Part shown: one piece after another, positions 14,256 through 36,130 of the stretch
Layout: every line of letters starts with the position of its first letter
Position numbering within the stretch: position 1 is the first letter of the stretch
Assembly (NCBI GenBank): GCA_951406725.2
Contig: OX597821.1
Coordinates: 76,570,001 to 76,634,000 of the forward strand
From: Octopus vulgaris
Lineage: Eukaryota
Direction: 5' to 3'
DNA: 64,000 bases
Made by a program: the position numbers and the translations under genes
The notes under the pieces: generated by a model
The model's database searches: none
What the model was told of the DNA's origin: nothing
Seen by the model: only the letters and a program-made list of their open reading frames with translations

Positions 14256-14506
14256 ACCTGGAAAAAAAGTAAACACAAGTCTAAGTGTCGTGGCGGGGAG
14301 CGTGGGGTCCGCGGACCCGCCCCACTGCATTCTGTCAATTTGTAAATGTGTCTTTGTAATTGTAATTGTAATTTCATTCGATTTTATTGTTCAGTCAAAT
14401 TTTTAAATTGATCCCACAAAGCATCTTATTGTATCATCATTCGTGATTGTCATGTTCTTGTCTATGTCGCCCCTAGTGGGTAATAAAGAATTTTGCTTTG
14501 TCTTTT

Positions 14507-17500
14507 GGAGGTCGGTTGTGTGTTGAAAGTAAGCTAAAATATTGTTAATAATTGTGTTTGATTTACCTTGTTGAAAATTTGTTGTTAAAACGTTGTTTTG
14601 AAAATTTGACTGGTTTGTGAACCAGAGAACTTTGTTATTCCCCTCCTTTAAGGAGGGGAAGTATTGTGAAATATATATTTTGTGTGTTAACACAATTTAA
14701 CAAAAAAAAAAAAAAAATACATATATCCATTTTTGTGAAAATGGATAACAAAAAAGTAATTACCAATGAAGGTTCACCTTCGAAGGAAAAGAATGTAGGT
14801 TCACCTACAAAAGGAAAAATTGTAGGTTCACCAAAAGAAAACAAAGCAGGAGAACCTGAAACAATTTCACCGACAATTGAAACGGAAAAAAAAAACGTTC
14901 AACTTTGCCGCCGCAGCAGGCAGGAAGACAGGACATCGACCCAGAAGAAATAGACTTCGAAGAATACAAGGAAATGTATAAGAGGGAGGGAAACAGCATA
15001 AAGGCTACCCTCCCCAAAGAAATCAAAACAAACACGATGAAGAAAATAGTGACTTTTAAATCGTTCCTAATCAAGGAGAAAAAAATAGGAAAAATTACAA
15101 AAGAACAGGCAGAAAAATGCCTAAAACCAATTTGGGCTGACATAGAATACGTTACATGGGGAAGGAAGTATGCCACAATTGTGGCATACTTCAAAGAAGA
15201 AGAAAAAGCGAAGATTCATTCAATCAACCCCATTAAAACGAATGAAATTATTCTTCTCCCCTCCTATATGGGGAGGCGTACATCGAGGATCAAAATAGAA
15301 GAGATCCCGATTGAAATTGAAGTAAAGAGCCTCATCCCAGCCCTATTCATGGGGCTGGAAGGAAAAATAAAAATTATCAACACAACCAAGATTAAGATGG
15401 AGAATTGGAAGGGACAGGCGCTGCAAGTAATAGTGCAGGCAGCGCCAGAGACGTTAGAGGAGGTCCCCGAAAGTATCGACTTCGATGACGACATAAACTT
15501 GCGGGTGGTGGTGGAGGGGCGTAAGCCCAGATGCTACGGGTGTGGCGAAAAGGGCCACATCCGAGCAGAATGCCCCGCCCGCAAGAAGGAGGAAGAAGAA
15601 GAGAAAAACAGAAGAAGAGGAGAGGAGAAAAATATAACAGAAGAAGAGAAAACACAAGACGATTTCGTAACGCCAAGGAAAGTAAAAAAAAGGAAAAACA
15701 CAGACATGAACACACCAAACCCTGGCATAAAAAAGACCAACACCCAGGGAGGGAAACCCACCACCCCCAAACACGGTTCCCCACAAAAAGGAAAAAATAT
15801 AGGACCCCCCCAGACTAACCCGAACCACCCCACAGTACCCAGCATTAGCCTCCCCTCCAAACGTCTTCGCCGTGCTCCTCCCCGGTCTCCCCCTCCTCCC
15901 CATCACCCCCACAAAGGCCACAAAAAAGAGTTACAGAATTTCAAATAGTATATGCTGCAATAAATAAGGACAACGACAGACTTAGAAACACAATTGGAAA
16001 CATACCAAGCGCGGGAAAAATAAAAACCCATAGAAATCTACATGAAAATGTAGGAATTTACAAATTGGACCTTTTGAACTATAACATAATAAACGCACAG
16101 TTTGCAGGGGACATAAGGGGTCCACGACTCGGATTGGACGAGTCACTGATTAAAGCGGACTTCACCCCACGACCAACAGGGACACCATTGTAAGGTAAGT
16201 AAAATGTCTCGTATTTGTGTAGGATGTGTAAATGTGCGTGGCTTGATGGCGAGCTGGAAGCAAGGGCGCTTCCTAAATGACATAAGGTCACGGGATTTAG
16301 ATGTTGTTGCCACAGAAACCCGGTTAAAGGGGCCAAGAGATCTGCTCCCGCTGTTCGACGGTTACGAGAGAATTATCTCTCCGAACCCGTCGGTCGGCGG
16401 AAGTGGGGTGTTGGTCCTGGTGAAAAAGAACCGGGTTTCTGGGAAAAGTTGATTTTTGCAGATCCAGAAGGTAGGCTGGTCGTCGTTGATTTGACGTTCA
16501 GCAGTCGTAAGACAATCAGACTGGTTGCGGTTTACGCACCCAATAATAAGGGGAATAGTGAGTATTTTCGGAATCTTGAGAAGTTTCTGAGTACATCGTG
16601 CCCTTTAGTAATGTTAGGAGACTACAACACAATCTGCAATGTGCGGGTAGACTGTGTAGGCTCGCAAACAGACAGGAAAGGAAATGCTTGCTTCCTGGAT
16701 CTACTAAGACGTTTTGAGCTGGTAGATCCATATAGACTGGAACATCCGGACGCTCCATTGTGGACATGGTCAAACAGCGACGGATCGTCAAGGTCATACA
16801 TAGACAGGATTTTAATTAGGAAGGTAGATAGAAACCTAGTTAAGAATCCACAGCTCCACATAGTCAGCTACAGTGACCACAAGATGGTCACCTGTAAGCT
16901 AGACGTAGATAAGATATATAGAGGTCCTGGTTACTGGAAACTTAATACGTTAGATTAAGGAGTACAGTGACAGGATTAGGTTAATGATCCAGAGGGCCAT
17001 GACCGGCTCCATTATCAATAACAAATGGTGGTATGCCCTCAAGCGAGCCATAAGATACGAGTATTAGGTATAGTATAGATCTCGTAGCTAGAGAGGCTAG
17101 AAAAGAAACTACTCTAGTTAAGGACCTAGGCACTGGATAATTTCCAGAAGTCTTTGGCTTGGCAGTGTTACCGAGGAGCCTTACCTGTTCGAGATAAACT
17201 CGCAAGGCATGGTGCCCCAGTCAGCCCGACCTGCGCGATATGTGGGCGAGACAGGTAAACCGTCTCGCACGCGATCTTCCAGTGCCCGGAGGTGACAGAC
17301 ATGTGGGTTTATGCCGAACAACTGATGTCAAGTGGAGGAAGAGTACAGCTATCAGCCGAATCCATTGTGAAAATTAGCCCACCTGATTTCTTAACGAAAG
17401 AAGGTAAGAATCGTTTTCTCTCTGTGGTTTCAATTGCGAAACAGGCAGTATGGAAGACGAGGGTGAAAGGGATGCTAACAGGCGACTTCATCTCCGGTTC

Positions 17501-17860
17501 TTGTCTGGTGGAATACTTCAAATTCCACCTGAAAAGACAAATAGAACTGGAGAGGAGGAGCCTGAGTAAGAAAGTGTTCGACGAAAGGTGGAAGAATGTG
17601 GCGAATAAAAGGTCCCTCACAAATACGAGATAGGCCGTAAAGGAAAAACACAAGGCTAAGTGTCGTGGCGGGGAGCGTGGGGTCCGTGGACCCGCCCCAC
17701 TGCATTCTGTAATTTTGTAAAACTGTCTATGTAATTGTGTAATCCTTCGATTTTATCTATCATTCAGATTTTTAATTCACCCCAAAAAGCATATAAATGT
17801 ATTTCATCATTCGTGATTGTATCGTAAGTTCTGTGTCGCCCCTAGTGGGTAATAAAGAAA
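14507..17860 (+). mobile_element. Tx1 LINE copy 2 with the RT domain deleted
   Basis: ORF1 (about 14741-16193, frameshifted) and endonuclease (from 16204); junction CCTAG|GCACTGG near 17130 joins the equivalents of copy-1 positions about 11802 and 13752; same 3' tail. Confidence 0.9.
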
Positions 17861-17883
17861 TAGAAATTCGGCAAAGAATTTTT

Positions 17884-18628
17884 GAGGACGTCGGTTGTTA
17901 TTATTTGAACGCGCGTGAAATTGTAAGTTGCAAAAATTGTTGTTGAATTGTTGTACGTTTGTTGATACGGTTTCTTGTTATACTGTTTCTGTTCTGGTGG
18001 CCGTTGTATGTCTGTGTTGAGACAGACAAAAGGATATGGACCACCCCTCCCTAATGGAAGAGTCGGAGGAGGAATGGTTATTCGAGACCTTGTCAGAAGC
18101 ATCGACCTCTGAGGACGAGCTGATCGGCGCTGTGAATATTATGGATATTAAAACCGGGAAAACGTACGCTGGAGCAGCAAAAAAAAAAAAAACCACAGAG
18201 GAAAAGGAGATAAACCTAGAAAAATTGCCAGGTTTTCAAGCATACATAACTAAAGGTGATGAGGTAGAACTACTTCCAGAGAAACGAGAAGACTGGTTTA
18301 TGAAGATAATTATAAAATACCGGACATATGGAAAAGATAAAGTAGAAATAATAAAAATGGAAGATATTGAGGAGGCGCTAAGGAGAGGAGGAAGAAATCA
18401 CATTCATGGCAAGAGGAAACGAGTTCGGAACTATAATAGCGCAATTTGAAAACAAAAATATAGCAAGGAAAATGGCAACGAAGACAATAAAAACTGAAAA
18501 AGTAATATTATTACCATCTTACATGAACCAAAGAATAAATAGAATAAGAGTTGAAGGGATACCCCCCCCCCCCCACATAGAGGGTGAATGGATCGTCGCG
18601 GCGATAATAAAAGATTTGGAAGAACCAA
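17884..18628 (+). mobile_element. 5' part of a third Tx1-related element (ORF1 family of 25518-27145), 3'-truncated
   Basis: LFETLSEASTSEDEL...TYAG...LEKLPGFQ...LLPSY aligns with ORF 25687-27048. Confidence 0.8.
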
Positions 18629-18629
18629 G

Positions 18630-19272
18630 TCATCCGCAACCAAGTAAGCCCCTCTGAAATCAACAACTGGAGATCTCATCAAGGACCAAAGCAAGAAAAT
18701 GGATACATGGGTGGAGTACTACCAGGATCTGTACTCACGGGGTCCACGGCAGCTGAGGCTGCAATCGAGGGTGTCAAGATCTTGCCAGTCATGTATGAAC
18801 TTGGCAGTCTGCCATCTATAGCAGAGCTCACCAAGGCGATTGACTCTCTAGCAAATAACAAGGCTCCGGGAAAAGACGGCATCCCCTTAGATATCATCAA
18901 AACCGGCAAAAAACACCATCCTGCGTCGGCACCTTCATGAGCTTCTGTGTCTGTGCTGGGAAGAGGATACAGTCCCTCAGGATATACGGGATGCAAACAT
19001 TACGCTTTAGAAAAACAAAGGTGACCATGGTGATTGTAACAATTACCATGGAATATCTCTCCTAAGCACTGTTGGAAAGGCCTTTGCTCCCATTATCCTG
19101 TCCAGGCTACAACTGCTTGCTTCTCGAATTTATCCAGAATCGCAGTGTGGCTTTAGAAGAAGCAGATCAATTATTTACATGATATTCTCCATACGCCAAC
19201 TTCAGGAGAGGTCCAGAGAGCAGAAAATGCCGTTATATATGGCCTTCATTGATCGGACAAAGGCCTTTGACT
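18630..19272 (+). mobile_element. RTE-clade LINE reverse transcriptase fragment
   Basis: KAPGKDGIP, KNKGD..DCNNYHGISLLS, PESQCGFR, IFSIRQLQE, LYMAFID..KAFD. Confidence 0.85.
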
Positions 19273-20765
19273 TGGAATGGGAGGTTGTCCCACCCAAGCA
19301 GTGGATTGAAAGTCTTGAGAAGAGGACGGTGGTCCTACGAACCTATTCTAGGTCGCGTGGAGCTATCGCCCTCTTCGACAGGAGCACCATTGAGAAGGAG
19401 TTGGGGGTACCACCTACCAACGATAAAATTTATTTCTCGGGGGAATAAATTTGCAACGGTGTGGTTGCTATTTGATACCCCCGAGGAAGCTAGCAGATTT
19501 GCTAGCGAGCCACTGGAGGGAGAGGAAATTTTGTTCCTCCCCTCGTATTGTGGCAGAAAAGTGAAAGAGCCTGGGTGTGTGGGCTGCCCCCGGGCACGGA
19601 GGCGGAATGGATCGAGAAGACCATCCGGTGAGGCCTGGGGGATAGCGGACCCACACTACTGAGTGTGAAAATGGCTCCCGCGGTCGCTTGGGAGGGGTCA
19701 AAGGCTACTTTGACCCTGTGGACGCCGGTGGCCGTGGGAGAAATGAAATTCCCGGACTTCCTGAGAATGGCTGGGCACAGGTACCCGGTGATACTCGAGG
19801 GTCGCTCCCCCCCCCAAGTGTCACCTGTGCCTGAAGCCCGGACACATCAGGAAGAATTGTCCCGGGGGCCGTGGTGGTGCCCCGGAGCAGAAAGGGGAAA
19901 AGGCGCCCGCCGCCCCCTCATTGGAGGGGGAGACGGTGGAAATCGTGGAGGAGGTTGCCTCCACGAAAAGAAAGAGACAGGCGAGCAACAATGGTTGCCC
20001 GCCAAAGAACGCTCAGGTGGCGGAGGGGGATAGCAATCCCCCGTGTCTGGTGACGGAGTCCCCTGGGTCAGCAGTCTCCCCCAAAAGAAGGAGGAGAAAA
20101 AGGAGAGGTCGGACGACTGACGTTTCTGTGTCGCCGACGGAGCCGCGGGTGGGATGTGTGCCACCCGCGGACAAGGCTCCGCCAGTAGGAAGTGTGCCAC
20201 TGACGGAGAAGTGTGAGGTCCCTTCCTGTGAAGAGGAGATGCTTCTCCTCCTTTACCACAAGGGAGAGGAGGTGGAAAGATTTTTGAATGGCTTGGGTGA
20301 CCGAGAACGCAAGGGCACGGTCGGCTCAAGGAGTCCGTTATGGCCTCCGCGGGTAGCTTCGGAAAAAGTAACGGAAGATATTTTGTCAAGGGTCGCAGAG
20401 ACCTTTGAGAGGAAAGATTTTACTTTTCTCTTTGCAGGCCCCGACTTGTCGTCGCAGAGTTGTCTGCAGGTGGCAAGACAATTTGCTTCGGGGACCTGAC
20501 GAGGAGAATTGTTGAACATTTTTTTGTAAACATGTTGAAGAGGAGGGTTATTGCCTCCTCTAAAATATGTAATTTGAATCATTGTGAACATTTTATTAAA
20601 TGTATTTATTGAAACATTGTTTTAGAGAAGCGATAGTCGGCGGGCGCTTTCGACTTCTCCCATCACCATCTTCATCCACCACCACCATCATCATCCATTA
20701 ATGTCCTTGTCCAGCCCGTAGCTACTATGTGTGCTGCCCTAGTGGCAAATTATATAAAATAAAGT
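19273..20765 (+). mobile_element. 5'-truncated ORF1-only Tx1-derived element (second family), frameshifted
   Basis: ISRGNKFATV, FLPSYCGRK, VILEGR..KCHLCLKPGHIRKNC; stop at 20499, short UTR with hairpin, tail GCCCTAGTGGC...AATAAAG; no ORF2. Confidence 0.7.
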
Positions 20766-21594
20766 AGAAAAAGCCTCTTCATCCTGCTCAAAAAATCGGA
20801 TGTAAAAGGTTCAGAGGATCACCAGAGCCCTGGGCGACTGTCCACAGTCGACGCTATGGCTTGGCTTGGCATGGCAGAAAGAAAGAATTTAAATTATATA
20901 TAGAGAACTATAGTGCGAAGGCAGCATAAAAAACAACCCTTCCTCAGTTGTTGGCAGTTTTACCTACTCCGTGTTGTGAGCATTGCAACGAGATGTCTTC
21001 GTCAAAGCAATTGCTCCCCCAAAGCAAATAAAATAAAATTTGAGATACGTGGAACGTCAAAGCTGCTAACAAAAACAGGACAGTGAAAACATTCGGTAAG
21101 GGCTGTTTAACCCTAACGAGGTGAAGTGGTGACCGCTGGAGAAAAAAAGCTTTGTCAAGAGAGACAAGAATGCGTGTTATAGTTATAAACTGAACGAGAA
21201 GAAAGAGAATTACACTTAGAAATAAAGATCTATAATTATTGAGGACAGAATTTCAGTTAGAAATAGAGAACTATAAATATTGAATTATGCATAAAGTGGT
21301 GGCTTACATTCGGGGCTTCAAATTTCCCTGTAAAATAGAAGATAATCGCAAAATCATCGCACATGTCACCATCGATTACAAACACCGGTGGAAGATAAAA
21401 GTTCCAGAGGACATTCTTGTTCTTTCACTCGTACAAGGATCGTATTATGTTTCGGCTTAAAATAAATTATAGATACAAATATAATGTATAGAAATATATA
21501 AAAACCAGAATAGAAAATAAACGTCTTAGACATATAAAATGAGATATCAAGCTGTAATAAACTTGAAACCTACTAGAATATCATAGATTATAAA

Positions 21595-24135
21595 TCATGT
21601 CATCCAATCAGTTCTGTCCGATTTTACCTTTTTTAGATTTGAATGAAATTTAATAGTATTTTCAAATATCTAATTCAATTAAAAATTACTTTTATGCATT
21701 TGTGTACGTTTAAACTAATTCAATATTGTTTTACGTACATGGGGATTAACACATACTTTTAAAACAATACAATTCTATTTAATTATAATGTTAATAAATA
21801 ATATTTTCAAAGTGATTTCCATCATTTTCAATGCATAACTTGATGAGCCTGGCAAAATTCAGTTGAACTTGATTAAATAAGTCTACATTGCCATCAATTT
21901 CAGCACACTGACTGGTAATGCGTTCTCGTGTGTTTTAAATCTGTAATCTTTATTGAGTAAACTTTCTCTTTCAACATACCCCAGAAAAAGAAATCAAGGG
22001 GAGAAAGTTCTGGTGAACGAGGGGACCATTCCAAACGACCCCTTCTTCCAATCCAGTGAGGAAAAGTGTCATTAAGCCAATCTAACATTTGTGGCAAAAT
22101 GGGTAGGGGCCGCATCCTGCTGAAACCAATTCGGAAAGCCCTCGCCTAGGCACCCAATTTGAGATATTAATTTGTCTCAATATGTTTACACAAGTCTCAT
22201 CCGTTACATGTTCAATGAAGAAGGGTCCTAGAACATGAGCTTTCCGCAAACCAGACCACCCTATCACCTTTTTTGCTGCCTTGCTGTTTGGATGGATCCA
22301 TCTAATGTGGATTACCTCGAGACCAGTATAGAAGATTGTCTGTTGACCTCACCATTTACATAAAACGTAGTTTTGTGAGTGAACAACTCGAAGTTTTTCG
22401 TAAAATTGATATTTTCATCCAATTTATTTGAAAACCATTCGCACGTCTACATTCGTCTATCAGGGTCGTCTTCATTTAAGTGATGCAATATATGTAGGTT
22501 GTATCGATGAAACTTTTCCTCAACCAGCATTTTGTGGATCGTTGGTTTTGGAACACCTAACACCGTGGATGTCCGACGAAGTGATTTCTTTGGGCTAGCA
22601 GAAACTTTAGCCATGACAGCCTCTTTCGTTTCATCTAAAGTCTTGGGTCGCCCGGAACGGGGTTTATCCAAAACACTGCCTGTTTCTTTAAATTTCTTGA
22701 TCAATTTCCCGACGGCAGTAAAATAAATAAATTGCCTTTAAGGGTGTCGAAGATTAAATTCTTCCGCAATTTTGCGATAAGACCATCCCTCTCGTTCACT
22801 TAATTATACTAACTCGATTCTTTCTTCTTTAGACAGATCCATCATTCGATCTGGGATTCTTTCTTCTTTAGATAGAGCCATCATTCGATCATCTGTAGAA
22901 AAAATAAATAAATTTATAAAAGTAAAGTATTTTTTTAAAAATTTAAACAAAAGTAAAAAAGGAAAATTATTATTTCTTCTATTTATTTGTTTATGTTATG
23001 ATTTTATTCCATGAACCCAGACTTCGTGGACACCCTAAAATTGCCTTGATTAAAACCTTTTCAACATGGAAGTATCCAAGGAGCATTTAAGGAACATATA
23101 ATTCTTTATGAGTACAATAAAGTTAACTCTGCAGCCGAAGTGACTCGAAACATACACTCAGTTTATGGGAAAGTGCTTGAATGAACGAACTTGCAGGAGA
23201 TCGTTTGCAAAATTGAAGATGAAGATCGAACAGGACGTCCAGTTGAGTTTGATAAGCTCCTTGAGGCATTACTTGAAGAAAATCCGTCATTATCAGTTGA
23301 AGAATTGGCAATAAAGCTTACTTCAAACCATACAACAGTTCATCGTCATCTTCAACAACGTGGAAAGATTCCTAAACTTGGAAAATAGGTGCCTCATGTA
23401 TTGTCCGAAAGCAACCGCAAATCCCGAGTTGACATCTGCTCTTCTCTCCGTTCTCGCAAACTCATTTCACCCTTTTTCGACAGACTTGTGACGAAAAATG
23501 GATTTTCTATCGAAATGTTAAACGTCGTAAACAGTGGCTTGGTAAAATGGAAAATGCTCAACCATAAAGAGAAGGGAACCTTACGGGAAAAAAGGTTCTA
23601 CTCTATCTGGTGCGATTGCAAAGGCGTAATTCACTTTATATTGTTACCACCTAATGCAACAATCAATGCTTAAGTCTACTGTCAGCAATTAGAGCGTTTG
23701 AACCAAGCTTTGAAGGAAAAAAATGCAGCTTTAGTGAGTCGAAAACAAGTGATGTTTCATCAGGACAATGCGCAACACCACACTGCAAAGATTACATCAC
23801 AGAAGATCGAAGAGGTCGGCTTGGAAAAATTTCTTCATCCAACTTATTCTCCCGACCTTACTCCTTCAGGATACCATTTGTTGCATAGTTTACAGAATTA
23901 TTAGGGGGACACAACTTTCGCAAGCCAGGAGGAGGTCTAACCTGACATTTCAGAGTTCTTCGCTTTGAAGCCAAAAGAGTTTTACATTGATGGGATTAAA
24001 AAGCTTGTAAATAGATGGAAGTAAGTCATAGATAATCAGGGAAAGTACATTGATGATTAACTTTCAATTAAATATAACATTTGATCACTTATATTCTTTA
24101 TCCAAAATTCGGACAGAACTTATGGGATGACCTGA
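21595..24135 (+). mobile_element. mariner (DD34D) transposon, degenerate, with a nested insertion
   Basis: TIRs TCATGTCATCCAATCAGTTCTGTCCGA / TCGGACAGAACTTATGGGATGACCTGA; transposase remnants about 23067-24060 (GRP, VPHVL, QDNA, YSPDLTP..YHL). Confidence 0.88.
21735..23037 (-). mobile_element. Tc1/mariner transposon of DD41D (rosa-like) type, degenerate, nested in the mariner 5' UTR
   Basis: KFKETGSVLDKPRSGRP, QQDAAP, WIGRRGRLEWSPRSPELSPLDFFFWG; one TIR clear at about 23010-23037, the other partial. Confidence 0.8.
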
Positions 24136-24735
24136 GATATATACACTGGTGAAAATATATTTAAGACCGACGATAAAAGTTCTATTTCTTACAAAGTATT
24201 TTGTTACTAAACACCATACAAATTATTTTTATCTTTTACACCGTATGCAAAATTTATTTCTCTTTCGAATGATGCAGACAATAACTATTTTGATACAACT
24301 TGAAGAATTTTAATGCTAAATATAAACGTTTCAAATTTAACGGCAAAATTAGTTTAAGACAATGTAATATGTATGCAATTTTTTTGGCCAAAATGGGTGG
24401 TCACACAACGAGCCTAAATGCACCATATAAAGTTATAATTTAATGTTATTATACAATTTATTAATAATGGGAAAACAACGTAGCCTTAGTCCAGTCACGA
24501 GAGCAAAATTCGTATATTACAGCAAAAAGTTTCCTTTTAAGAACATCAGCAAGCAACAAAAGTGCAGTAAACCGGCTTGCGCGCAAGCGTGGAAGTTAAA
24601 ATGTGTTATACGATAAAAATTTCGGCTATTTGTCTTAAAACATTCAGACAAGAAAATTCAGATGTAGCACATGAGGTATTATTCCATACGAATATCCACA
24701 TATGTTAAGAGTTTCATGATAAAAATATAGAAATA

Positions 24736-25302
24736 TTGGGTTGTCCGGAAAGTTCGTGCCGATTTATAGTAGCTTAACTTTCGACTTATTTTAGAACATG
24801 TTTGAGTCAATAAAATAGGATTTGACTACATCTCCATTTAGAGCACAGTTTAAGCTATCTTTTCGTGGAAGAAGTTTTATGTTCCTATAACCTGTATTAA
24901 TTCTGTAACCCTTTAAAATAAAAGATGAGAAAGTTCATTTTCGGCACTTGATGCTTTGGGAACCAGACATAAATTGCTGCTGCTCGGCTGGGATGCGTTA
25001 TCCCCATCCTCCTTATTCCCCAGATATTACTCCTTCGGATTTCCACTTATTCAGGTCTCTGCAGAATAGTCTTCATGGTGAAAATTTAAATTCCTTAGAT
25101 GACGTAAAAAGATACCATGAAGAATTCTTTGCCTTGAAACCACCCCAATTCTGGGAAGAGGGTATTTTCAAGGTAAAGAAAAGATGGAGACGAATTGTGC
25201 AACGAAATGGTTCAGATTTGGTTCATTAAAAATGTAATGGCAAGTATTTATTGACCTTTTATTTTCCTTTAAAAATCGGAACGAACTTTCCGGACAACCC
25301 AA
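24736..25302 (+). mobile_element. Internally deleted mariner (non-autonomous), copy 1
   Basis: TIR TTGGGTTGTCCGGAAAGTTCGTGCCGATTT, TA TSD, residual HPPYSPDITPSDFHLFRSLQ. Confidence 0.92.
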
Positions 25303-25517
25303 TATAAACATAACAATGAAATACGAATATAAACATGAAAAATAAAAACCTAAATTGAAAGAGGCGATTAAAATTTTTTTCCTAACCTGCAGCCGTATCA
25401 GAAAAGTGGTTGTACGAAGTATTCGAAATTCAGCCCTCCTTCCTCAGGGTTCCTTTCTCGAGGTAAGATCCAGCAAAAATCGTTAAGGCACTACATGGTG
25501 AAAGTTCAGTTTTCTGA

Positions 25518-27145
25518 TTTTTTTATTACTCACGAGGGGCTACATAGAGGGGACATAGAACATCAATTACATAAATATGGGTAAATGAATTAATGAAAAT
25601 GATATATGAAAGCGACGCTAACGGCCCCATCCGCTAGCATCACTTACCTGTCCTTTAGTTATTAGTCCCAAACGAATGCTCCTTGTTCAGTTCCTATAAA
25701 AAAATCCATCCATCTCCATCCTTCTCTCAAACGTCTCTTCCAAATCCCTCATGATTTTTTCGACCATTCTCACTTCACTTACTTCCCAATCCCCCCTTTC
25801 ACACATTACCATAAACTCGTCCATTCGTTCTTTTCCAATTACTGCATATCTGATCGGTCCTCTGTCACACCATTGATATTCTTCCATTGTCTTTTTAATC
25901 TTTTCTTTTCCCGTCATACATACAATGTTGGGCCTGGGTTCATTTTTTGTATCTTGGTATTGTGTGTCTTTTCTTTTCTGTTTTCTTGTTGGAGGGGAGC
26001 GGGTGGGTTCACTGTCTGCAGGGAGAGGGTGGGACTCAGAGGGTGTGGTTGGTGTTGGGGTGGATTGAGGTTCCGCACTGTTTACTTTTCCTCTTATTCT
26101 TCTCTTCCTCTTTTTCCGGGCTTCTTCCCATTCTTTTGAAACTTCTTCTGTTGTCTCTTTCTCTTCTGATTTCTGCACTTCTTCCGCCTCTCTTTGTGGT
26201 TCCGCATCCATATTTTTCTCTGGAGGAGGGCAGTTAGCTCTTATGTGGCCTCTCATGCCACACTTATAACAGCGCGGGGCTCTGCCCTCCACCCACACTC
26301 TCATGATGATGTTTCCCATTCTTATATTTTCTGTTAATCTTTCTAGCGTTTTGGTCTCTGCCTGTGCGTTCATATCCAGGGTAGCACCCCCCCAGATTTC
26401 ATAATTTATGGTGGCATGGAGGATGTCTACCTTTTCTTCATTTCCCTTAATTACAGCTGCTGCTATATATTCGCCCTCTAGGTGTGGGGATATTCCCTCC
26501 ACCCTGATTCGCGTGGTTTTCCTGTTTAGGTATGAAGGTAGCAGGTATACCTTCTCCGTTCTTACTGCCTTGGCTGTCATTTTTCTTGCGACGCTCTCGC
26601 TCCTATATTGAACCGTCACTGTCCCGTATTCCATTCCTCTTGTCAAATAAACAATTTCCTCCTCTGTCTGTTTTAGCGCCTCTTCAATAATTTCCATGCT
26701 TACTATTTCAATTCTTTTTCTTCCATTTGCGTACACTCTATATTTGACGGTCCTGCGATCGAACCACTCACCACGCTTTGTTGGAGGTGACAGTTCGACT
26801 TCACCGTCCTCCTCTTTCATAAATTCCTGGAAGCCTGGCAGTTTAACCAGGTCTACCTCTTTTTCTTCCGACTTCTTCTTCGTTACTCCTGCATACGTAT
26901 TTCCAAGCTTCTTATCCATTCTTTTCACTGCTCTTTCTAGTTCCTCCTCAGACGTCGACAATTCCGACAAACTTTCAAACAAATTATTCCTGGCCATCTC
27001 TCCCGTTAGGGAGGAGCAGTCCATTTTTCTCCTTGTCTGTCTCAACACAGACAGACAACAACCAAAATCCTCACACCTAAACGTTCAACAATAATAAATT
27101 CGACAATCAGCAAACAGTCAGCAGCTCACAAAAAAGTCAACCTAG
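25518..27145 (-). mobile_element. ORF1-only non-autonomous Tx1-derived retroelement ('half-Tx1')
   Basis: T/G-rich 5' UTR, single intact ORF1, about 170-nt 3' UTR ending GCCCCTCGTGAGTAATAAAAAAA; no endonuclease or RT. Confidence 0.85.
25687..27024 (-). CDS. Intact gag-like ORF1 protein with CCHC zinc knuckle (445 aa from the first ATG)
   Basis: Uninterrupted ORF; LLPSY, VEGRAPRCYKCGMRGHIRANC; homologous to ORF1 of the Tx1 copies. Confidence 0.85.
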   Translation of the reverse strand: MDCSSLTGEMARNNLFESLSELSTSEEELERAVKRMDKKLGNTYAGVTKKKSEEKEVDLVKLPGFQEFMKEEDGEVELSPPTKRGEWFDRRTVKYRVYANGRKRIEIVSMEIIEEALKQTEEEIVYLTRGMEYGTVTVQYRSESVARKMTAKAVRTEKVYLLPSYLNRKTTRIRVEGISPHLEGEYIAAAVIKGNEEKVDILHATINYEIWGGATLDMNAQAETKTLERLTENIRMGNIIMRVWVEGRAPRCYKCGMRGHIRANCPPPEKNMDAEPQREAEEVQKSEEKETTEEVSKEWEEARKKRKRRIRGKVNSAEPQSTPTPTTPSESHPLPADSEPTRSPPTRKQKRKDTQYQDTKNEPRPNIVCMTGKEKIKKTMEEYQWCDRGPIRYAVIGKERMDEFMVMCERGDWEVSEVRMVEKIMRDLEETFERRMEMDGFFYRN

Positions 27146-27785
27146 ATTTTCAAGTGACGTTTAAATAAGAAATGAAATTCATTGAAATGTTAACTTTAGT
27201 TAATCATGCAAAAAAAGCCAATTGGAATATTCCACTCTGTAATGATATATACTACAATAACAAAGAAATTATTTTAGATTTGTGCATAAGTATTCATTGG
27301 ATCTAATCCAGATAGTATTTTCAAAAAGCTTTACAGTTTTATATTTTAAAAATTTAATTTTAAAGTTTAAGAAAATCATAAGACGCTAAATATTTATGCT
27401 TACAACATACTAAAATGTCTGTAATTTTATTTAATTATATGTCTTTATTTCTATTACTAGCGTATAGTATGCTACTCGATTCCTTGATGCAAAGCCTATA
27501 CGATTTAGTATATTTGTTCTATGGTGTTGATTCGTTAATTATACTCAATGTTAGACTGTATGAGGTGGTTAATGTATGATGCTAAAGTCATGGAATTTTT
27601 TTATATAGGGGTGAATAAATGAACTCTTGTGTCCCATATATCTAATGTGTATACATGTATATACATGTATGTCTAGATGTATATATATAGATGTACATGT
27701 AATATGTACACATATATATATATGCATACATATATACACCCATACACACATACACACACACACACACACACATACATACATAAGT

Positions 27786-28169: not shown

Positions 28170-28216
<47 letters not shown>

Positions 28217-28261
28217 TGTATGTGTGTGTATACATATATGTATACACACATATATATATAT

Positions 28262-28470: not shown

Positions 28471-28472
28471 TT

Positions 28473-28532
<60 letters not shown>

Positions 28533-28759: not shown

Positions 28760-29048
28760 CTTAACTCTCACATTTTAGAGCTCCATGACCTTCATTTTTT
28801 AGGAGCAAAATCTTTTTAACAGGTTCAATAACACTGGAATTTTGGAATATGCGCATAAAAATAAGTAGTATGGGATACATGTGGCACGATTACAAATTTT
28901 TTTAGGGTGTATAAAGAGGGAAATAACCCTCATCTGCAATTTTGATGAAATTCGAAACATAGATATTCCAGTTCATTACAGAAAATATAACCGAAAAGTC
29001 TAATTCTTCAATTGAATGTAACCGGGCAACGCCGGGTATCTCTGCTAG
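28760..29048 (+). mobile_element. Helitron 3' end
   Basis: Hairpin CCGGGCAACGCCGGG, then CTAG|T at 29045-29049; left boundary uncertain. Confidence 0.75.
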
Positions 29049-29049
29049 T

Positions 29050-30057
29050 ACGATATAAAATACAGTGCCAAAGGGAATAATGAAGGACGACAATCGTTCT
29101 AATGTTTGAAGGAGAAGAAGACTTTATTTACAATGTGTACAAAGGGAATGTGTGTGAGTGCTAGAGGAGTGTAGTGTCTGGCCATGCGACAAGTGTTTGT
29201 GTCTGAGTGTTCGTGTATGCGACAGAAGGTACAAGCAATGGTGCATGCATATAAAGCAGAAATACAGAATACAGAGCATAAGATACGTTTCTCAGCATAT
29301 TGAGTTGAGATGGAATTTGTTTACCAGTTCGTAAGTGAGGTACACGACAGCAAGAGTTCTATAACAAGATGTTGAGGGTCACGTAGCAGAGGCCGGTTAC
29401 TACATGTGTAAAAGTTGTGGCTATCATGCTGTGCCGAGTCTCTTGATGCAGAAAGTTCTTTCAGGTAGACTGTAACTGTTTTACCTCGGTGAAATATTCA
29501 CAAACAGTGTGAGTTTAAACCTGTGTGAATGTTGATGTATACATATTGCTGAAGTCGACGGAGATGGAGACGATGCAGAGGTCAAGGACGAAGATGGTGA
29601 TGGCAGCGGCAGAGGGAGACGACGTCGAGAAGAAGGCGACGGAGATGTAGAACGTCCTGTCTGTCGCTGGTGTATAATAGCGTCTTCATGGCTGGCTGGC
29701 TGGCTGGCTGGTCATCTCTCGTTGGAACTGGAACACGGCTGAGTAGCTCTGTGGTCAATGACTAGACCTTAGAAGGTCTAGAGCCAAAGACCCGGAATAG
29801 TGAATGCTGGCCTTTTTATAGCGTGTGGTAGGCTCAAATGAAGGATCAGAAAAATAGTGTCACGAGACCTTATCCAAAGGCCGTGATTGGTTGGCTTACA
29901 CACTGGCGCGAAATAAGTCGAAAGAAAAACTGCGCCAAATGCCAACCAATCAGAGCAGTGGACACAAGACGGTCAAACTAGCCAAAGATGGTTGTAATCT
30001 CAAACGAGATCATTCGTAATGTGTCTCTCAAACAGTGAGGGTATCAATTACGCTACA
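29050..30057 (-). mobile_element. Probable solo LTR
   Basis: Minus strand starts TGTAGCG, then CCAAT boxes, TATAAAAAG near 29815 and AATAAA near 29125; no TSD found. Confidence 0.45.
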
Positions 30058-30120
30058 AGCTGTAGGTCGGGCATGATTGAAAAGAGTTATGATAAAAGGT
30101 ATTATGAGCTTGACTAATAC

Positions 30121-30161
<41 letters not shown>

Positions 30162-30642
30162 CTCCTCTCTAAGTTAGGCACATCCTTGACCACGTTATCC
30201 GGCGTCTTTCTCCTTTTAAGATAGTCCGGTATGACATGAACGAGATTTGGTTGTTATTTCGAGCATGTACAGCAACCATGGCACATGATAATATTGGAAT
30301 AATCGCTTAGTATATAAGTTCTTTCTCAATCAATGTTTCAAAACGTCGGTCAAGCAAAATGAGTTTCAGCATCCGGTGAGAACAAAACTGCAAGACGATA
30401 GAAAAAATCAAACAACCATCTCCATTTTAAGTGACAGCAGAGATAAACGTTAACCGGAGGAATCCATACATAATCGTTAATGCAAATGTTCGTATCGTTT
30501 GGTTGCTTCACTGCATGTATGAGATTAGACAATCAGACAGTTTTACTGATAAGAACAATTTTGTGAAGGAGTGAGTACGGCCTTATTCCATCGACCTTCG
30601 ATTCGATTCAATTTCAGAATAGCATAGAATTAGACAAAATAT

Positions 30643-31087
30643 TACTCTTTTACTTGCTTCAGTCATTTGACTGTGGCCATGCTGGAGTCAACCGCCTTTA
30701 GTCGAATGAATCGACTCCAGGACTTATTCTTTGTAAGCCTAGTACTTATTCTATCGGTCTCCTTTTTGCCGAATCGCTAAGTTACGGGGACGTAAACACA
30801 CCAGCATCGGTTGTCAAGCGATGTTGGGGGGACAAACACAGACAGACAAACATACAAACACACACATACATGCTCTTTACTCTTTCACTTGTTTCAGTCG
30901 TTTGACTGTGGCCATGCTGGAGCACCCCCTTTAGTCGAGCAAATTGACTCCAGGACTTATTCTTTGGAAGCCTAATACTTATTCTATCGGTCTCTTTTGC
31001 CAAACCGCTAAGTTACGGGAACGTAAACACACCAGCATCGATTGTCAGGTGATGATGGGGGAAAAACACACACACAAACATACACAA

Positions 31088-31152
<65 letters not shown>

Positions 31153-31783
31153 AAATATTAGGGAATAAATCCAAATTTACAGGGAAAAATCAGATTTAGG
31201 ATTGAATCCAATTTTATAGTAAAATATTATATAATATTAATTAGAGACAAAACCACTATTATGCAAATCAAACAAAGAAAGACTTAATCCAATACATAAA
31301 AATTTTATATAAATTAAATAAAATTAAGTTATCCACTACAATTGTTTCTTGTCACTTCTAAGGACATTCATCAGGTGGTTTTCAGACCTTCTATTCAATT
31401 TTAAATTATGAAGTTCATAATTTAAAATTGAATAGAAGGTCTGAAAACCACCTGATGAATGTCCTTAGAAGTGACAAGAAACAATTGTAGTGGATAACTT
31501 AATTTTATTTAATTTATATAAAATTTTTTATGTATTGGATTAAGTCTTTCTTTGTTTGATTTGCATAATAGTGGTTTTGTCTCTAATTAATATTATATAT
31601 ATATATATATACATATATGAGACGGGCTTCTTTCAGTTTCCGGTTACCAAATCCACTCACAAGGCTTTGGTCGGCCCGAGGCTATAGTAGAAGACACTTG
31701 ACCAAGGTGCCACGCAGTGGAACTGAAGCCGGAACTATGAGGTTGGTAAGCAAGTTACTTACCACACAGCCACTCCTACGCCT
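30643..31783 (-). mobile_element. Two SINE family A pieces; the second is split by a palindromic insertion in its (TA)n
   Basis: 3' halves at about 30643-30870 and 30873-31100; matching 5' half at about 31620-31783. Confidence 0.85.
31448..31493 (+). ncRNA. Type I hammerhead ribozyme (inverted copy at 31333-31378)
   Basis: CCAC-CUGAUGA-aUGUC...GACAa-GAAA-CAAUUG-UA-GUGG. Confidence 0.8.
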
Positions 31784-31829
31784 ATGTAAAGCATTTCAGA
31801 GAATATTCAGCTAATATTGCTTTCAAATT

Positions 31830-32562
31830 TTCGCACATGGCTAGCAAGATCGGGAATGATGTGGAGGATAGTCGATCACATCGATCTCTGTTGGAACCTG
31901 TTTTATCGACTCTGAAAGAATTAGTAACAAAGTCAACCATGGCGGAATTTGAACTCAGAACGTAAAGATGGACGAAATACCGCTGAGTATATTGACCGGC
32001 GTGCTTACGATTCCGCCAGGTCGCTGTCTTATATTCAGCTAACAATGGTTTCATATTTTGGCACAAGGCCAGCAATTTCAGGGAAGGGACTGATTCGATT
32101 AAATCGACCACATTGCTCAACTGGTACTTATTTTATCGACTCCTGAAAGAATGAAATGCAAAAACGACCTCGGTGGAATTTGAACTCTGAACCTAAAGGC
32201 GGACGTAATGCCACTAAGAATTTACTCAGTGTGCTAACGATACTGCCAAGCTCACTGCCTTATATTGAGCAAATATTCTTTTCTACTCTAGGCACAAGGT
32301 CCGAAAGTTTGAGAGAAGAGGCCAGTCGATTAAGTCAACCACAGTACGCGACTGGTACTTAAATCATCGACCCCGAAAGGATGAAAGGCAAAGCCGACCT
32401 CGACGGAATTTGAACTCAGTACATAAAGACAGACGAATATTGAGCAAATATTCTTTTCTACTCTAGGCACAAGGCCCGAAATTTTCAGGGAGAGGGCCAG
32501 TCGATTAGATCGATCCAAGTACGCAATTGGTGCTTAATTTATCGACCCCGAAAGGATGAAGG
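31830..32562 (-). mobile_element. Cluster of SINE family B copies and fragments
   Basis: Repeated reverse complement of GAGTTCAAATTCC...GCCTTTCATCCTTTCGGGGTCGATAAA. Confidence 0.8.
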
Positions 32563-32564
32563 CA

Positions 32565-33510
32565 AACTGGATCTGTTGACCAATCTAGGCTATTTTTTGT
32601 AAGTTTCTGCATCATTTGGTCCAGTTGGTTGCAGTATACTTCGGCCGTGATTGATGAACCAAGTTTAATGAAATCATAATGGATCACACCAGCGCCAAAC
32701 CACCAAACACACACCATCAGATTCTTTTGATGAAATTTGCTTTTTGGAGTGTTTTGGTGGCTCGTCTTTGTCCAACCAAATTGTGCTGAACGTTTACAGT
32801 TGTTATATTGGATCCATTTCTCATCACATGTTACAATTCAATTAAAAAATTATTCATTTTTTGGACGAGAAAGTAGCATAACGCAGGCTTCCAAACGTTG
32901 CTGTTTCTGATTTTTATTGAGTTCATATGGAACCCACTTATTCAACTTTTTAACTTTACTGATTTGAACTAAGTGAGTCAATATTGTTTGCTTGTTAACA
33001 CCAAACAACAACAATTATTTACGGGCACTTTGAGATGGATCTGACTCGACGGTGGCTTCAGTTCGTCATTATCCACCTTTGTTTCTGGTCGACTGCGTTG
33101 CTCATTTGTGGGATCAGTTACCAGAACGAAATTTTGCAAACCAACTGTCTGCTGTGTAATAACATTAGAATGAAATACTTCATTAACCTTCCGAGCTGTC
33201 TGTGATGCTGTATTTCCAAGAAAGAACTCATATTTCAAAACTGTACGAATTTCCGACTTATCTATCTTTAAACAGAAATAGCAAAAAACGAGTTATAAAT
33301 ACTTTTAATAAATACTATAAATACTATAAATACTACACATTTCTTTATTCTAACTCATTTTGTGCTTTATAAAGCACAAAATGAGTTAGAATAAAGAAAT
33401 GTGTCAGCTTTGTAACAAAAAATATTGTTAAACTATAATAATGGCGCAAAATGATCAGCTATCAAAGTTTACCATATACCTTACTATAAATTTCATACTT
33501 GACGACCTAA
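32565..33510 (-). mobile_element. 5' half of a mariner transposon
   Basis: TIR TTAGGTCGTCAAGTATGAAA at 33510; LKYEF..G.TA..TAR, WVPYEL, TCDEKWI, MVCVWW...GVIHYDF. Confidence 0.85.
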
Positions 33511-33554
33511 TATTTAAGCTAACGTCCATTCCTCAGTTTTGTATTTATAATAAA

Positions 33555-33800
33555 ACTAACTGGATCCGTGAAAACTTCACGGAAAACGTAAATGTAAGCA
33601 TCTATAAATAGTGACTTCATTTAATTACTATCGAATAATTAGGTATAAGCAGGATCCTGGGGGATTCTATGAAACACAAAAATGTAAGTATCTTTAGAAG
33701 TAACATCCAATTACAGTGTAGAAAAGTAAAAATAAAATCGAATATTGGCCGAGGACGCAGTATAGAGAATATGGTAATTAATTATATTGTAGGAAAGTAA
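33555..33800 (-). mobile_element. Possible Helitron 3' end
   Basis: Hairpin CCGTGAAGTTTTCACGG followed by TTAG|T (CTAG variant). Confidence 0.4.
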
Positions 33801-33900
33801 AAGCAACGTCCAATATTTGCTGTGATTATGTAATTGTTAATTCTGAAAATACGGATAAACATTTAAAAACACAAAACGAACGCCACCTTCCTTTCAGTCA

Positions 33901-33938
<38 letters not shown>

Positions 33939-34121
33939 TCACTTCTTCTCTGTCCCTCCTTCTCTCTCCTTCTTCCTCTCACTTCTACTGTACCTTCTCC
34001 GCTTAACACATTTCTCTTTTCCGTTCTACCTCTCCCTTCAATGTAAAAAAGAAACAGTAACATCCACAGTTATTTGCTGAGAGACAGACAGAGGCAGAGG
34101 CATTGGCAGACACAGACAGAG

Positions 34122-34179
<58 letters not shown>

Positions 34180-34509
34180 AACAGAGAGACAACCAGACAG
34201 AGGGAGAGAAGTGTATTAGAGAGAGAAGCAGACAGAAAAATTGTCAAACAGAGGGAGAGAGAGTGTGTGTGTTAGAGAGTGTTAGAGAGAGGGGCAGACA
34301 GAATAACTGTCAGATACAGAGAAGGAGAGAGAGTGTTAGAGAGAGGGGCAGACAGACAGACAGACAGCATTTCTTTTGGCAATTTCCATATTTTTTTCAA
34401 CGGCTTTATCACATATCGTCCAAAATGAAAAGTTTTCCAGCATTTTCTCTATAAACATGCTTTCATTTCCTTTCACTATCATTCTCTATCCTCTCTCTCT
34501 TCCTTCACT

Positions 34510-34548
<39 letters not shown>

Positions 34549-34844
34549 AATCTTACTTCCCCCCTTCCAACCTCTCTTCCTCCTCTTTATCTCCTTGCCT
34601 CTCTAACCGTCCACCTGTCTTTAACGCGTTATATTTCTCTTGCCTCTCAGCGCCATCAATCTCTCTCCCCCTCTCTCTCTCCCCCCTCTCTCTCTCTCTC
34701 TCTTTCTCTTACTTCCTCTTACTTCCTCCTCTTTGCCGCTTAGCCTCTCACTTCAACTATACTTCCTCTGCTTAACAAGTTTTATTTCTCTCTTTTTACC
34801 TCTTCCATTCAACTAAGTGTGAAACACACCACAGCAGTGAGCAG

Positions 34845-36130
34845 CCGGAAACGTTAGCACACCGGGCGAAATGCTTGGCGCTATTTCGTCTGTTCTAACG
34901 TTCTGAGTTCAAATTCCACCGAGGTTGACTTTGCCTTTCAGTTACGCACTGGGGGTCGATATAATCGACTTAATTCCTTTGTCTGTCCTTGTTTGTCCCC
35001 TCTGTGTTTAGCCCCTTGTGGGTAGTAAAGAAATAGCTATTTCGTCTGTTTTAACGTTCTTAGTTCAAATTCCACCGAGGTCGACTTTGCCTTTCATCCT
35101 TTCGAGGTCGATTAAATAAATACCAGTTACGCACTGGGGGTCAATATAATCGACTTAATTCCTTTGTCTGTCCTTGTTTGTCCCCTCTGTGTTTAGTCCC
35201 TTGTAGGTTGTAAAGAAATAGCTATTTCGTCTGTTTTAACGTTCTTAGTTCAAATTCCACCGAGGTCGACTTTGCCTTTCATCCTTTCGAGGTCGATTAA
35301 ATAAATACCAGTTACGCACTGGGGGTCAATATAATCGACTTAATTCCTTTGTATGTCCTTGTTTGTCCCCTCTGTGTTTAGCCCCTTGTGGGTAGTAAAG
35401 AAGTAGCTATTTCGTCTGTTTTAACGTTCTGAGTTCAAATTCCACCGAGATCGACTTTGCCTTTCATCCTTTCGAGGTCGATTAAATAAATACCAATTAC
35501 GCACTGGGGTTGATATAATCGACTTAATTCCTTTGTATGTCCTTGTCTGTCCCCTCTGTGTTTAGCCCCTTGTGGGTAGTAAAGAAATAGCTATTTCGTT
35601 GTTTTAACGTTCTGAGTTCAAATTCCACCGAGATCGACTTTGCCTTTCATCCTTTCGAGGTCGATTAAGTAAATACCAGTTACGCACTGGGGGTTGATAT
35701 AATCGACTTAATTCCTTTGTCTGTCCTTGTTTGTCCCCTCTGTGTTTAGCCCCTTGTGGGTAGTAAAGAAGTAGCTATTTCGTCTGTTTTAACGTTCTGA
35801 GTTCAAATTCCACCGAGATCGACTTTGCCTTTCATCTTTTCGAGGTCGATTAAGTAAATACCAGTTACTCGCCTTAATCGACTTAATTCCTTTGTATGTC
35901 CTTGTTTGTCCCCTCTGTGTTTAGCCCCTTGTGGGTAGTAAAGAAATAGCTATTTCGTCTGTTTTAACGTTCTTAGTTCAAATTCTACCGAGGTCGACTT
36001 TGCCTTTCATCCTTTCGGGGTCGATAAATTAAGTACCATTTACGCACTGGGGTCGATGTAATCGAATTAATCCCTTTGTCTGTTCTTGTTTGTCCCCTCT
36101 ATGTTTAGCCCCCTGTGGGCAATAAAGAAA
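34845..36130 (+). repeat. Tandem array of about 7 SINE family B units (period about 184 bp)
   Basis: Units restart with CTATTTCGT at about 34880, 35037, 35222, 35407, 35591, 35774 and 35950. Confidence 0.9.

Follow-up and report, generated by a model that had tools for sequence, protein, structure and literature searches.

A covarying 3'-terminal hairpin shared by an L1/Tx1-group LINE, ORF1-only elements and SINEs of Octopus vulgaris

In this study, we found that an L1/Tx1-group LINE, ORF1-only ('half') LINEs and three SINE families in a 64,000-nucleotide stretch of the Octopus vulgaris genome (contig OX597821.1; hereafter the window) carry the same kind of small hairpin. The hairpin lies at the 3' ends of the elements, its stem varies by double-sided changes, no poly(A) follows it, and the whole tail of one SINE family, B1, is shared in sequence with the LINE and a half element. 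That SINEs borrow the tails of LINEs is a textbook principle. We consider it probable, at roughly two chances in three, that an octopod L1/Tx1-group LINE lineage recognizes its 3' hairpin stringently and that this recognition serves ORF1-only elements and SINEs.

Results

LINE copy 1 (9127..14492, + strand; 5' end approximate) is full length yet broken. It is composed of a frameshifted ORF1 (about 9369-10857), an endonuclease (10868-11539; Pfam Exo_endo_phos, E 4e-9), a reverse transcriptase (RT) with a C-terminal zinc motif (11637-14255; RVT_1, E 5e-29; zf-RVT, E 3e-10) and a 3' UTR (14256-14492), all on the + strand, and the UTR closes with a hairpin and an A-rich end without poly(A) (14469..14492; stem GCCC/GGGU, loop CUAGU, 14469-14481). 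LINE copy 2 (14493..17861, +) stands head to tail behind it, is 83% and 93% identical to it in self-BLAST, has a large deletion inside ORF2 (residues 56-705 of the RT frame are missing in tblastn) and carries its hairpin at 17838-17850. The APE endonuclease, the RT and the C-terminal zinc motif are all present, which places the LINE in the L1/Tx1 group. The RT scored 165-168 bits against human L1 ORF2p, 72-85 against R2 and 25 against a group II intron RT, a comparison that covers only the families among the PDB matches. Copy 1 is 58% identical to an Argonauta protein. ORF1 of copy 2 has a zinc knuckle (zf-CCHC, E 4.5e-4, slightly below the curated threshold), and the ORF1 look-alikes in the atlas are CCHC and ZCCHC3-like proteins; no literature report of a link between ZCCHC3 and Tx1 was found. 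The narrower label 'Tx1' is our assumption from the build of a zinc-knuckle ORF1 plus zf-RVT, and the top homologues carry no clade names. Among 47 candidates in viral and 131 in metagenome contigs, no relative of the C-terminal part of ORF2 was confirmed.

The ORF1-only half element (25517..27135, - strand; 5' end approximate) contains an open, intact frame of 465 codons with a zinc knuckle (27084-25687) and 172 nt of 3' UTR from the stop to the end. Its product is 55% identical to an Octopus sinensis protein and 33-34% identical to the LINE ORF1 (E 4e-21 to 7e-26). The ORF1/ORF2 junction motif, AGGTAAGT followed by ATG, is kept at 25638..25649 (-), as in both LINE copies (10858 and 16193); three of the four occurrences of the junction octamer in the window sit at these ORF1/ORF2 junctions. 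The element ends in a tail at 25555-25517, whose hairpin (25540-25528) has one C-A mismatch. Having a LINE-homologous ORF1, no ORF2 and a LINE-type 3' end, it is an ORF1-only non-autonomous LINE of the HAL1-like kind. HAL1 proper, which derives from mammalian L1, was rejected, the ORF1 homologues being found only in octopus. Contigs related to the half element, with about 85% similarity and a depth of 54-386, extend across the ORF1 stop codon in three of four runs and end about 10-13 nt past the junction ATG, short of the tail; one loose end in run X8 continues past the junction into UTR-like sequence.

A diverged relative, the 5' fragment of a second half-type element (17885..18624, +; ORF1 50-54% identical in tblastn), is interrupted by an RT fragment, and contigs diverge from the window at 18624. 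This RT fragment (18625-19275 and 20762 to about 21200), which we take to be RTE-like, is itself split by a second ORF1-only element (19276..20761, +), which is 5'-truncated and broken, with a weak zf-CCHC match (E 0.019), ORF1 similarity at E 1e-5 to 6e-5 and a hairpin at 20735-20747 (UGCC/GGCA, loop CUAGU). Its boundaries are set by empty-site contigs that join 19272/19275 to 20762 in three of four runs. According to these contigs, the last three bases of the 'AATAAAG' formerly ascribed to this element (20762-20764) belong to the host RT fragment.

SINE B copies occur at four separate places in the window, and the families B1, B2 and B3 have head and body in common. B1 (34834..36131, +) is an array of one head and seven tandem units with a tail on each, the last hairpin being at 36108-36120; the seven units represent one or two events, not seven, because diagnostic changes are common to them. 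B2 joins the B1 body to another tail (GGGC/GCCU, loop CUUGU) and is found as two 5'-truncated tandem copies (32270..32574, -; hairpin 32477-32465, mutated at 32302-32290) and as a third copy (40066..40202, -; hairpin 40095-40083). B3 (UGGC/GCCA, loop CUUGU) comprises two full-length tandem copies (31810..32268, -; hairpin 32071-32059, decayed at 31843-31831) and a 5'-truncated copy (2688..2801, +; hairpin 2776-2788). The Pol III B box is exact in three of three heads, and the A box is 1-2 mismatches from the consensus. In a search for tRNA homology, ARAGORN predicted no gene, and no tRNA was among the 127 Rfam matches, which were microsatellite-driven and sub-threshold. The body motif is present in SINEs of other animals too and had no match in prokaryote genomes. 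The name 'Meta-domain SINE' was discarded, since the published body of BivaMeta-SINE1 is by eye unlike that of SINE B.

The original prediction held that LINE, half-LINE and SINE share one 3' tail. The tails that it quoted are present in the LINE copies (14469-14481 and 17838-17850), the half element (25555-25517, -), the SINE (36091-36131) and the second ORF1-only element (20735-20747). The SINE B tail is indeed nearest to the half-element tail, with which it agrees in 34 of 41 aligned columns, versus 25/30 and 26/32 for the LINE copies. When the last 41 nt of the SINE were compared with 12,517 windows of 50 nt on both strands (SINE array left out), the half element (score 53) and the two LINE ends (40 and 39) were the three best, the next reaching 27 (mean 12.6, sd 2.9). 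With 20,000 dinucleotide shuffles per tail, such scores were never attained, so that the similarity exceeds chance, and BLASTN of the SINE against the window returned the half-element tail as the only non-SINE match (E 7e-6). A short motif that was defined post hoc would favor a chance likeness between short AT- and C-rich ends; nevertheless, the shuffles for the three tail pairs and the top three places in the scan refute this origin for the B1, half-element and LINE tails, and we give it hardly any weight. A common origin is supported for the tails of the LINE, the half-LINE and SINE B, as is conservation of the stem.

For the second ORF1-only element, which keeps the hairpin, the match of the tail to B1 is weak (score 23; 319 of 20,000 shuffles as high). 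This tail is narrowly the best non-SINE match of the B3 tail (31 versus 28 in 15,714 windows), and the links of B2 and B3 to other tails depend on the 13-nt hairpin. No LINE with the B2 tail is found in the window. The tail motifs had no match in the supplementary files searched (for PMC9115989, without files 5-8). Two matches of the tail pattern in viral contigs, which are near-identical and unrelated, were taken as chance.

The signal had been described as GCCC..GGGY plus AATAAAG, which is too narrow: neither part is present in B2, B3 or the second ORF1-only element. What is conserved is a 4-bp stem with a C-G closing pair, a CUNGU loop, an A-rich spacer and 10-20 nt to a poly(A)-free end. 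The LINE, the half element and the last of the B1 units have AAUAAA 3' of the hairpin. It is missing from B2, B3, the six earlier B1 units and the second ORF1-only element, all of which retain the hairpin.

The predicted hairpin received firmer support than before, since 12 tails from the window show double-sided changes at three of the four pairs and four stem types. Pairing is kept in 45 of 48 cells, covariation is 0.686 versus 0.177 in shuffled and at most 0.174 in slid alignments, and RNAalifold recovers the identical helix; these statistics lean toward the motif because the hairpin served as the anchor of the alignment and the motif was formulated with the tails already in view, and the independent evidence amounts to about four stem types in one window. 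A C-CUNGU-G loop on a stem of at least 4 bp occurs 12 times in the window versus a shuffled mean of 1.18 (maximum 5 in 100 shuffles), and all 12 are 3' ends of LINE, half or SINE B elements, corresponding to eight loci because five are array units. A pattern requiring just G or C in the stem also gave 12 matches (0.15 by chance), all complementary and of three stem types. A covariance model added no window tail beyond further array units and gave no match below E 0.98 when run on 45 of 120 control SINE loci from non-octopus-like animals. The motif was absent from the 87 of these 120 loci with the same body and at least 150 nt downstream, and from eight stretches of other retroelements in the window (five SINE A copies and three other RT elements). 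No hairpin-internal variant was among the variant rows listed for contigs of the runs. The folding energy is weak, being -3.4 to -5.1 kcal/mol in nine of the 12 tails and about zero in three, including the mismatched half element; when 50 nt upstream were included in the fold, the probability of the helix was at least 0.7 in only five tails and at most 0.05 in six.

The hairpin could be real and yet act in RNA 3'-end formation, stability or ORF1p binding, the LINE being relaxed and the SINEs gaining stability only. Such a role would fit the AAUAAA of some tails, the smallness of the helix and the report, in the accessible text of PMC3472496, that for most L1-clade LINEs there is no SINE with a partner tail. 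It is at odds with the hairpin being kept where AAUAAA is missing and with the lack of a poly(A) tract after any of the 12 tails examined. Moreover, SINEs with A and B boxes are Pol III transcripts, for which no cleavage signal is required. We regard this role as unlikely, though as the strongest of the alternatives.

The prediction had called for target duplications to be compared among the classes, and here the classes disagree. An exact 24-bp repeat of 9127-9150 at 17861..17884 (+) brackets the pair of LINE copies and is either a target duplication or a shared 5' terminus, whereas the second of the tandem B3 copies at 31810..32268 has a 12-bp duplication on its flanks. A target duplication was clear in one of four SINE B copies tested, being ambiguous or absent in the others. 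Neither the half element nor the B1 array showed one, and none was seen where the second ORF1-only element entered the RT fragment. Insertion at specific targets is common in the Tx1 clade. Here, the elements form a head-to-tail train with the 24-bp repeat, and the junction of the tail with the repeat and the element that follows is spanned by contigs from runs X2 and X3; the sites of other members are unrelated. This pile-up, and the statement in the available part of PMC4494074 that Tx1 elements often target other repeats, would agree with the tail being a shared landing site, with LINEs inserted in the 3' part of a SINE. However, on the 5' side of the two LINE copies and of the half element, BLAST found no SINE B head or body, and the hairpin of the second ORF1-only element lies inside the boundary set by the empty sites. 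A landing site is therefore largely refuted and very improbable.

It is also conceivable that B1 took the LINE/half-LINE tail once by template switching and carries it passively, that the SINEs were moved by another octopus LINE (RTE-like, R4-like or CR1), and that the B2 and B3 hairpins are drifted copies. The inconsistent target duplications agree with this, a single SINE ancestor of the tails is possible because B1, B2 and B3 have head and body in common, and RTE is reported to be greatly expanded in cephalopods in the accessible text of PMC10294476. On the other hand, drift would not preserve pairing through double-sided changes, the other RT elements of the window lack the motif, and the B3 tail resembles a different ORF1-only element. 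Passive carriage thus seems improbable, more so than a role in 3'-end formation or stability.

Discussion

The LINE described here has its tail in common with a SINE and ends in a stem-loop with compensatory changes, as stringent-type LINEs do. This suggests that an L1-type enzyme selects its passengers by RNA shape, which so far has been described mainly for plant and algal L1s. We propose the following scheme for stringent recognition by the octopod LINE lineage. The ORF2 protein would bind the small 3'-terminal stem-loop of the RNA (4-bp stem, C-G closure, CUNGU loop), and target-primed reverse transcription would begin 10-20 nt downstream, at the A-rich end without poly(A). Loss of ORF2 from such LINEs may have yielded the ORF1-only elements, in which the 5' region and ORF1 would have been retained along with the junction motif and the tail. 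A SINE of the tRNA type, whose body domain is widespread, may have taken tails from the LINE lineage more than once, presumably by template switching: the B1 tail from the half-element/LINE branch, the B2 tail from an unseen member of the lineage, and the B3 tail perhaps from the branch to which the second ORF1-only element belongs. A bolder version, which we put forward tentatively and with more doubt than belief, is that animals have an L1/Tx1 lineage with structure-based, poly(A)-free recognition, in which a matched SINE family accompanies each of several LINE/half-LINE branches; the loop with its closing pair would be the common handle, and the stem and spacer would mark the branch.

The contrast with mammalian L1 drawn in the original prediction is right, yet stringent L1-clade tails are known in maize/sorghum and Chlamydomonas, according to the accessible text of PMC3472496. 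These pairs are LINE1-1_ZM (monocot 1a L1 lineage) with ZmSINE2, ZmSINE3 and SINE2_SBi, and L1-1_CR with SINEX-3_CR (PMC3472496, PMC3747384, in part). As in octopus, an L1-clade LINE and a tRNA SINE share an end (about 45-50 nt there) with a conserved loop, a variable stem and compensatory changes; a conserved loop with a variable stem is described for stringent LINEs in the available sections of PMC3472496 and PMC4176376. The octopus case differs in the animal host, the much smaller hairpin (4 bp), the lack of terminal poly(A), the ORF1-only sharers and the three SINE tails. In Table 1 of a review of LINE-SINE pairs (58 pairs according to its text), there is neither an animal L1/Tx1 pair nor a mollusc (PMC3747384).

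HAL1, HeT-A and Ag-Sponge, as the available text of PMC5786205 and PMC5753468 presents them, resemble the half element in encoding ORF1p only and retaining 5' and 3' parts of the parent LINE; the half element differs in its octopod L1/Tx1-group origin, zinc-knuckle ORF1, poly(A)-free hairpin end and a tail nearest to a SINE tail. In crocodilian Tx1-Mar/SINEU, a Tx1-type LINE was likewise proposed to mobilize a SINE, with tandem insertions split by the target duplication. There, LINE and SINE are linked by common targets and by snRNA heads, and poly(A) is present in SINEU, whereas in octopus they are linked by the 3' tail and the SINE head is of the tRNA type; a LINE sharing the SINEU-1 3' end was not found by Kojima 2015 (PMC4494074, accessible text). 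UnaL2-UnaSINE, ZfL2-1/ZfL2-2 and bivalve CR1/L2 SINE tails, in the available parts of PMC4176376 and PMC4824008, also have a short 3' stem-loop and one SINE body that swaps tails between LINE partners. They belong to another LINE clade, and reading of the stem-loop by ORF2p was demonstrated there by assay, whereas for octopus we infer it.

In the O. vulgaris assembly, 11.6% is SINE sequence, 893 of 900 recently active SINE families are unclassified and 13 L1-Tx1 families are active (PMC13282606). The L1/Tx1 lineage is a candidate for the partner of octopus SINEs. As an animal case in which the hairpins covary and poly(A) is lacking, it allows a direct test, for which natural stem variants are available, and a 13-nt handle would rank among the smallest LINE recognition signals. 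If LINE and SINE branches are indeed matched, a major group of octopus SINEs would have this lineage as its engine, and the match would favor the view that the L1 group was ancestrally stringent in its recognition, in animals as in plants.

Conserved hairpin at the element ends

Six retroelement families in the window share a unit at the 3' end: a 4-bp stem with a C-G closing pair and a CUNGU loop. They are the LINE, the half element (an ORF1-only LINE derivative without ORF2), a second, diverged ORF1-only element and the SINE families B1 (SINE B), B2 and B3. In the original prediction the shared signal was GCCC-loop-GGGY; the hairpin is present in all six families, but this stem is restricted to the LINE, the half element and B1. 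The stem is UGCC/GGCA in the second ORF1-only element, GGGC/GCCU in B2 and UGGC/GCCA in B3. The hairpin motif, which was defined after the data had been seen, occurs 12 times in the window (1.18 expected), at 8 loci and always at an element end. The pattern without the pairing requirement also gives 12 matches (0.15 expected), all complementary. When 12 tails were aligned with the hairpin as anchor, 45 of 48 cells were paired, and RNAalifold returned the same helix. Stem covariation, checked in these window tails, appeared as double-sided change at three of the four pairs, with only about four independent stem types behind it. Five of 17 window tails deviate from the strict motif in at least one position: those of the half element, the last and second B1 units, one B2 and one B3.

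The elements end 10-20 nt beyond the stem, and no poly(A) was found behind the tails. Taken alone, the helix is barely stable (about -3.5 kcal/mol); when 50 nt of context are included, it is dominant in only 5 of the 12 tails. A role of the hairpin in 3'-end formation or stability is improbable, although it is the strongest of the alternatives that we considered.

The tails quoted earlier for the LINE, the half element, SINE B and the second ORF1-only element are all present at their positions. As predicted, the SINE B tail is nearest to that of the half element (34 of 41 columns over the last 41 nt, vs 25/30 and 26/32 for the LINE copies). These three score 53, 40 and 39, ranking 1-3 of 12,517 windows, with the next best at 27. 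None of 20,000 shuffles reached these scores, and mere chance resemblance is the least credible explanation. The second ORF1-only tail matches SINE B only poorly (319 of the 20,000 shuffles scored equally high), and empty-site contigs indicate that three bases of its 'AATAAAG' come from the host RT fragment. The B3 tail is closest, narrowly, to this second ORF1-only tail (31 vs 28), and for B2 no partner LINE or ORF1-only element is present within the window.

The motif was absent from eight stretches of other retroelements in the window and from all 87 usable loci of other animals' SINEs with the same body (120 taken; 33 with less than 150 nt downstream dropped). A model search of 45 of the 120 gave nothing below E 0.98.

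LINE copies and ORF1-only elements

LINE copy 1 (9127-14492) is full-length but broken and has two ORFs, with a zinc-knuckle ORF1, APE endonuclease, RT and a C-terminal zinc motif. Its RT has about twice the bit score against human L1 ORF2p as against R2, and an Argonauta protein is 58% identical to the RT frame. By sequence, the LINE is a member of the L1/Tx1 group, at group level. Copy 2 (14493-17861), with an internal deletion, lies head-to-tail behind it and is followed by the 5' part only of a half-type element, ending at 18624; 9127-18624 is a head-to-tail train at a single site. Next comes the RT fragment, into which the second ORF1-only element is inserted (19276-20761; boundaries from empty-site contigs in three of four runs). 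Contigs from two of the public runs, X2 at depth 51 and X3 at depth 240, also contain the tail-repeat-head junction at 17806-18137, which is compatible with several copies or one orthologous locus. The flank left of the train (8790-9126) is perhaps Helitron-like, judging by a short, weak match (29 bp, E 4e-4). Public contigs of four runs were aligned over 17130-27300; all other evidence comes from the window and the control loci.

The half element (25517-27135, minus strand) has a single open frame of 465 codons. Identity of this frame to the LINE ORF1 is 33-34%, and the element's 3' end lies 172 nt past the stop. Protein matches were found only in Octopus sinensis and O. bimaculoides; the source of the window is an octopod. 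The half element retains the LINE ORF1/ORF2 junction motif AGGTAAGT..ATG, as expected if ORF2 was lost from a full-length relative, and we infer such an origin. The octamer AGGTAAGT is found at 10858 and 16193 (plus strand), directly before the ORF2 ATG of both LINE copies, and at 25649 (minus strand); these junctions account for three of its four occurrences in the window. We take it to be a perfect 5' splice-donor consensus, and control of ORF2 via splicing or U1 is possible. Contigs related to the half element run across the ORF1 stop in three of four runs and stop short of the tail; it likely spreads as a family in ORF1-only form.

Longer GC-rich hairpins of unrelated sequence lie further upstream in every LINE and half-LINE 3' UTR (25641-25614, minus strand, folding as a long stem in the half element; 14290-14326, 20539-20561 and 20626-20660, plus strand). 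They are not part of the SINE tails.

SINE families and other repeats

SINE B carries motifs resembling A and B boxes, and its body is common to SINEs of other animals. The body motif was seen in abundant SINEs in metagenome contigs (about 10,000 stretches estimated); in loci L003-L122, other animals' SINEs with this body, downstream parts and tails differ. B2 and B3, found by searching for the loop instead of the stem sequence, have the SINE B head and body with different tails. The array at 34834-36131 comprises seven units of about 185 bp, and units 1-6 have common changes absent from the last; it is a tandem expansion of one SINE, not seven insertions. At 31790-32580 (minus strand), four B2/B3 copies stand in tandem, each followed by a near-identical 12-13 nt (TTWGCTSAATAT), pointing to repeated insertion into one site.

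Insertion signatures were mixed. Comparison of target duplications among the classes yielded, within the window, a 24-bp repeat flanking the LINE pair and 12 bp flanking one B3 copy; the half element, the B1 array and the second ORF1-only element showed none. That the tail was captured and is passive, with another LINE as driver, seems unlikely, somewhat more so than a role in 3'-end formation.

The window also holds a near-perfect palindrome (31354-31476), two inverted back-to-back SINE B pieces (40066-40348), an inverted pair of 319 bp at 98% (47887-48952), a decayed Penelope-like element (44700-46800, plus strand; GIY-YIG E 0.0025), a LINE 3' part ending in a TAA repeat (56500-57800, minus strand), presumably of the restriction-like endonuclease type, and a 2.4-kb minisatellite within a Helitron-like element (59835-62231). 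Two exon-like stretches (about 2300-2483 and 5915-5998, plus strand) resemble a sulfotransferase; a host gene may therefore contain or adjoin the repeats.

Discussion

Tail sharing in the octopus is a real feature. The sequences establish that the tail is shared, that its stem is conserved and that it stands at the element ends; we infer the RNA structure in vivo, the reading by ORF2p and which element is the partner of which SINE. The most likely mechanism, with a probability of about 0.7, is that ORF2p of the LINE lineage recognizes the loop together with the closing pair and starts reverse transcription from the A-rich end. The tail would have been retained by descent in the ORF1-only derivatives and acquired by the SINEs via template switching, more than once. 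If the tail were instead a shared landing site, SINE bodies might lie 5' of the LINEs; they are absent there, and this explanation is very unlikely.

SINE-LINE tail sharing is a known phenomenon. Hairpin reading and priming by ORF2p have been demonstrated by assay in L2-clade LINEs (PMC4176376). ORF1-only LINEs such as HAL1, HeT-A and Ag-Sponge (PMC5786205) and a SINE proposed to be Tx1-driven, SINEU (PMC4494074), have been described. Stringent L1-clade tails with compensatory changes occur in maize, sorghum and Chlamydomonas (PMC3472496), and the octopus tails likewise have double-sided stem changes. In Table 1 of a 2013 review, which lists SINE-LINE pairs (PMC3747384), neither an animal L1/Tx1 pair nor a mollusc appears. 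In searches of an open-access library, no account of an octopus SINE with an L1/Tx1 tail turned up; Repbase, Dfam or the 1994 octopus SINE paper could hold one.

A bolder interpretation, less likely than not, is that an animal L1/Tx1 lineage uses poly(A)-free hairpin recognition, with matched SINE partners for its branches.
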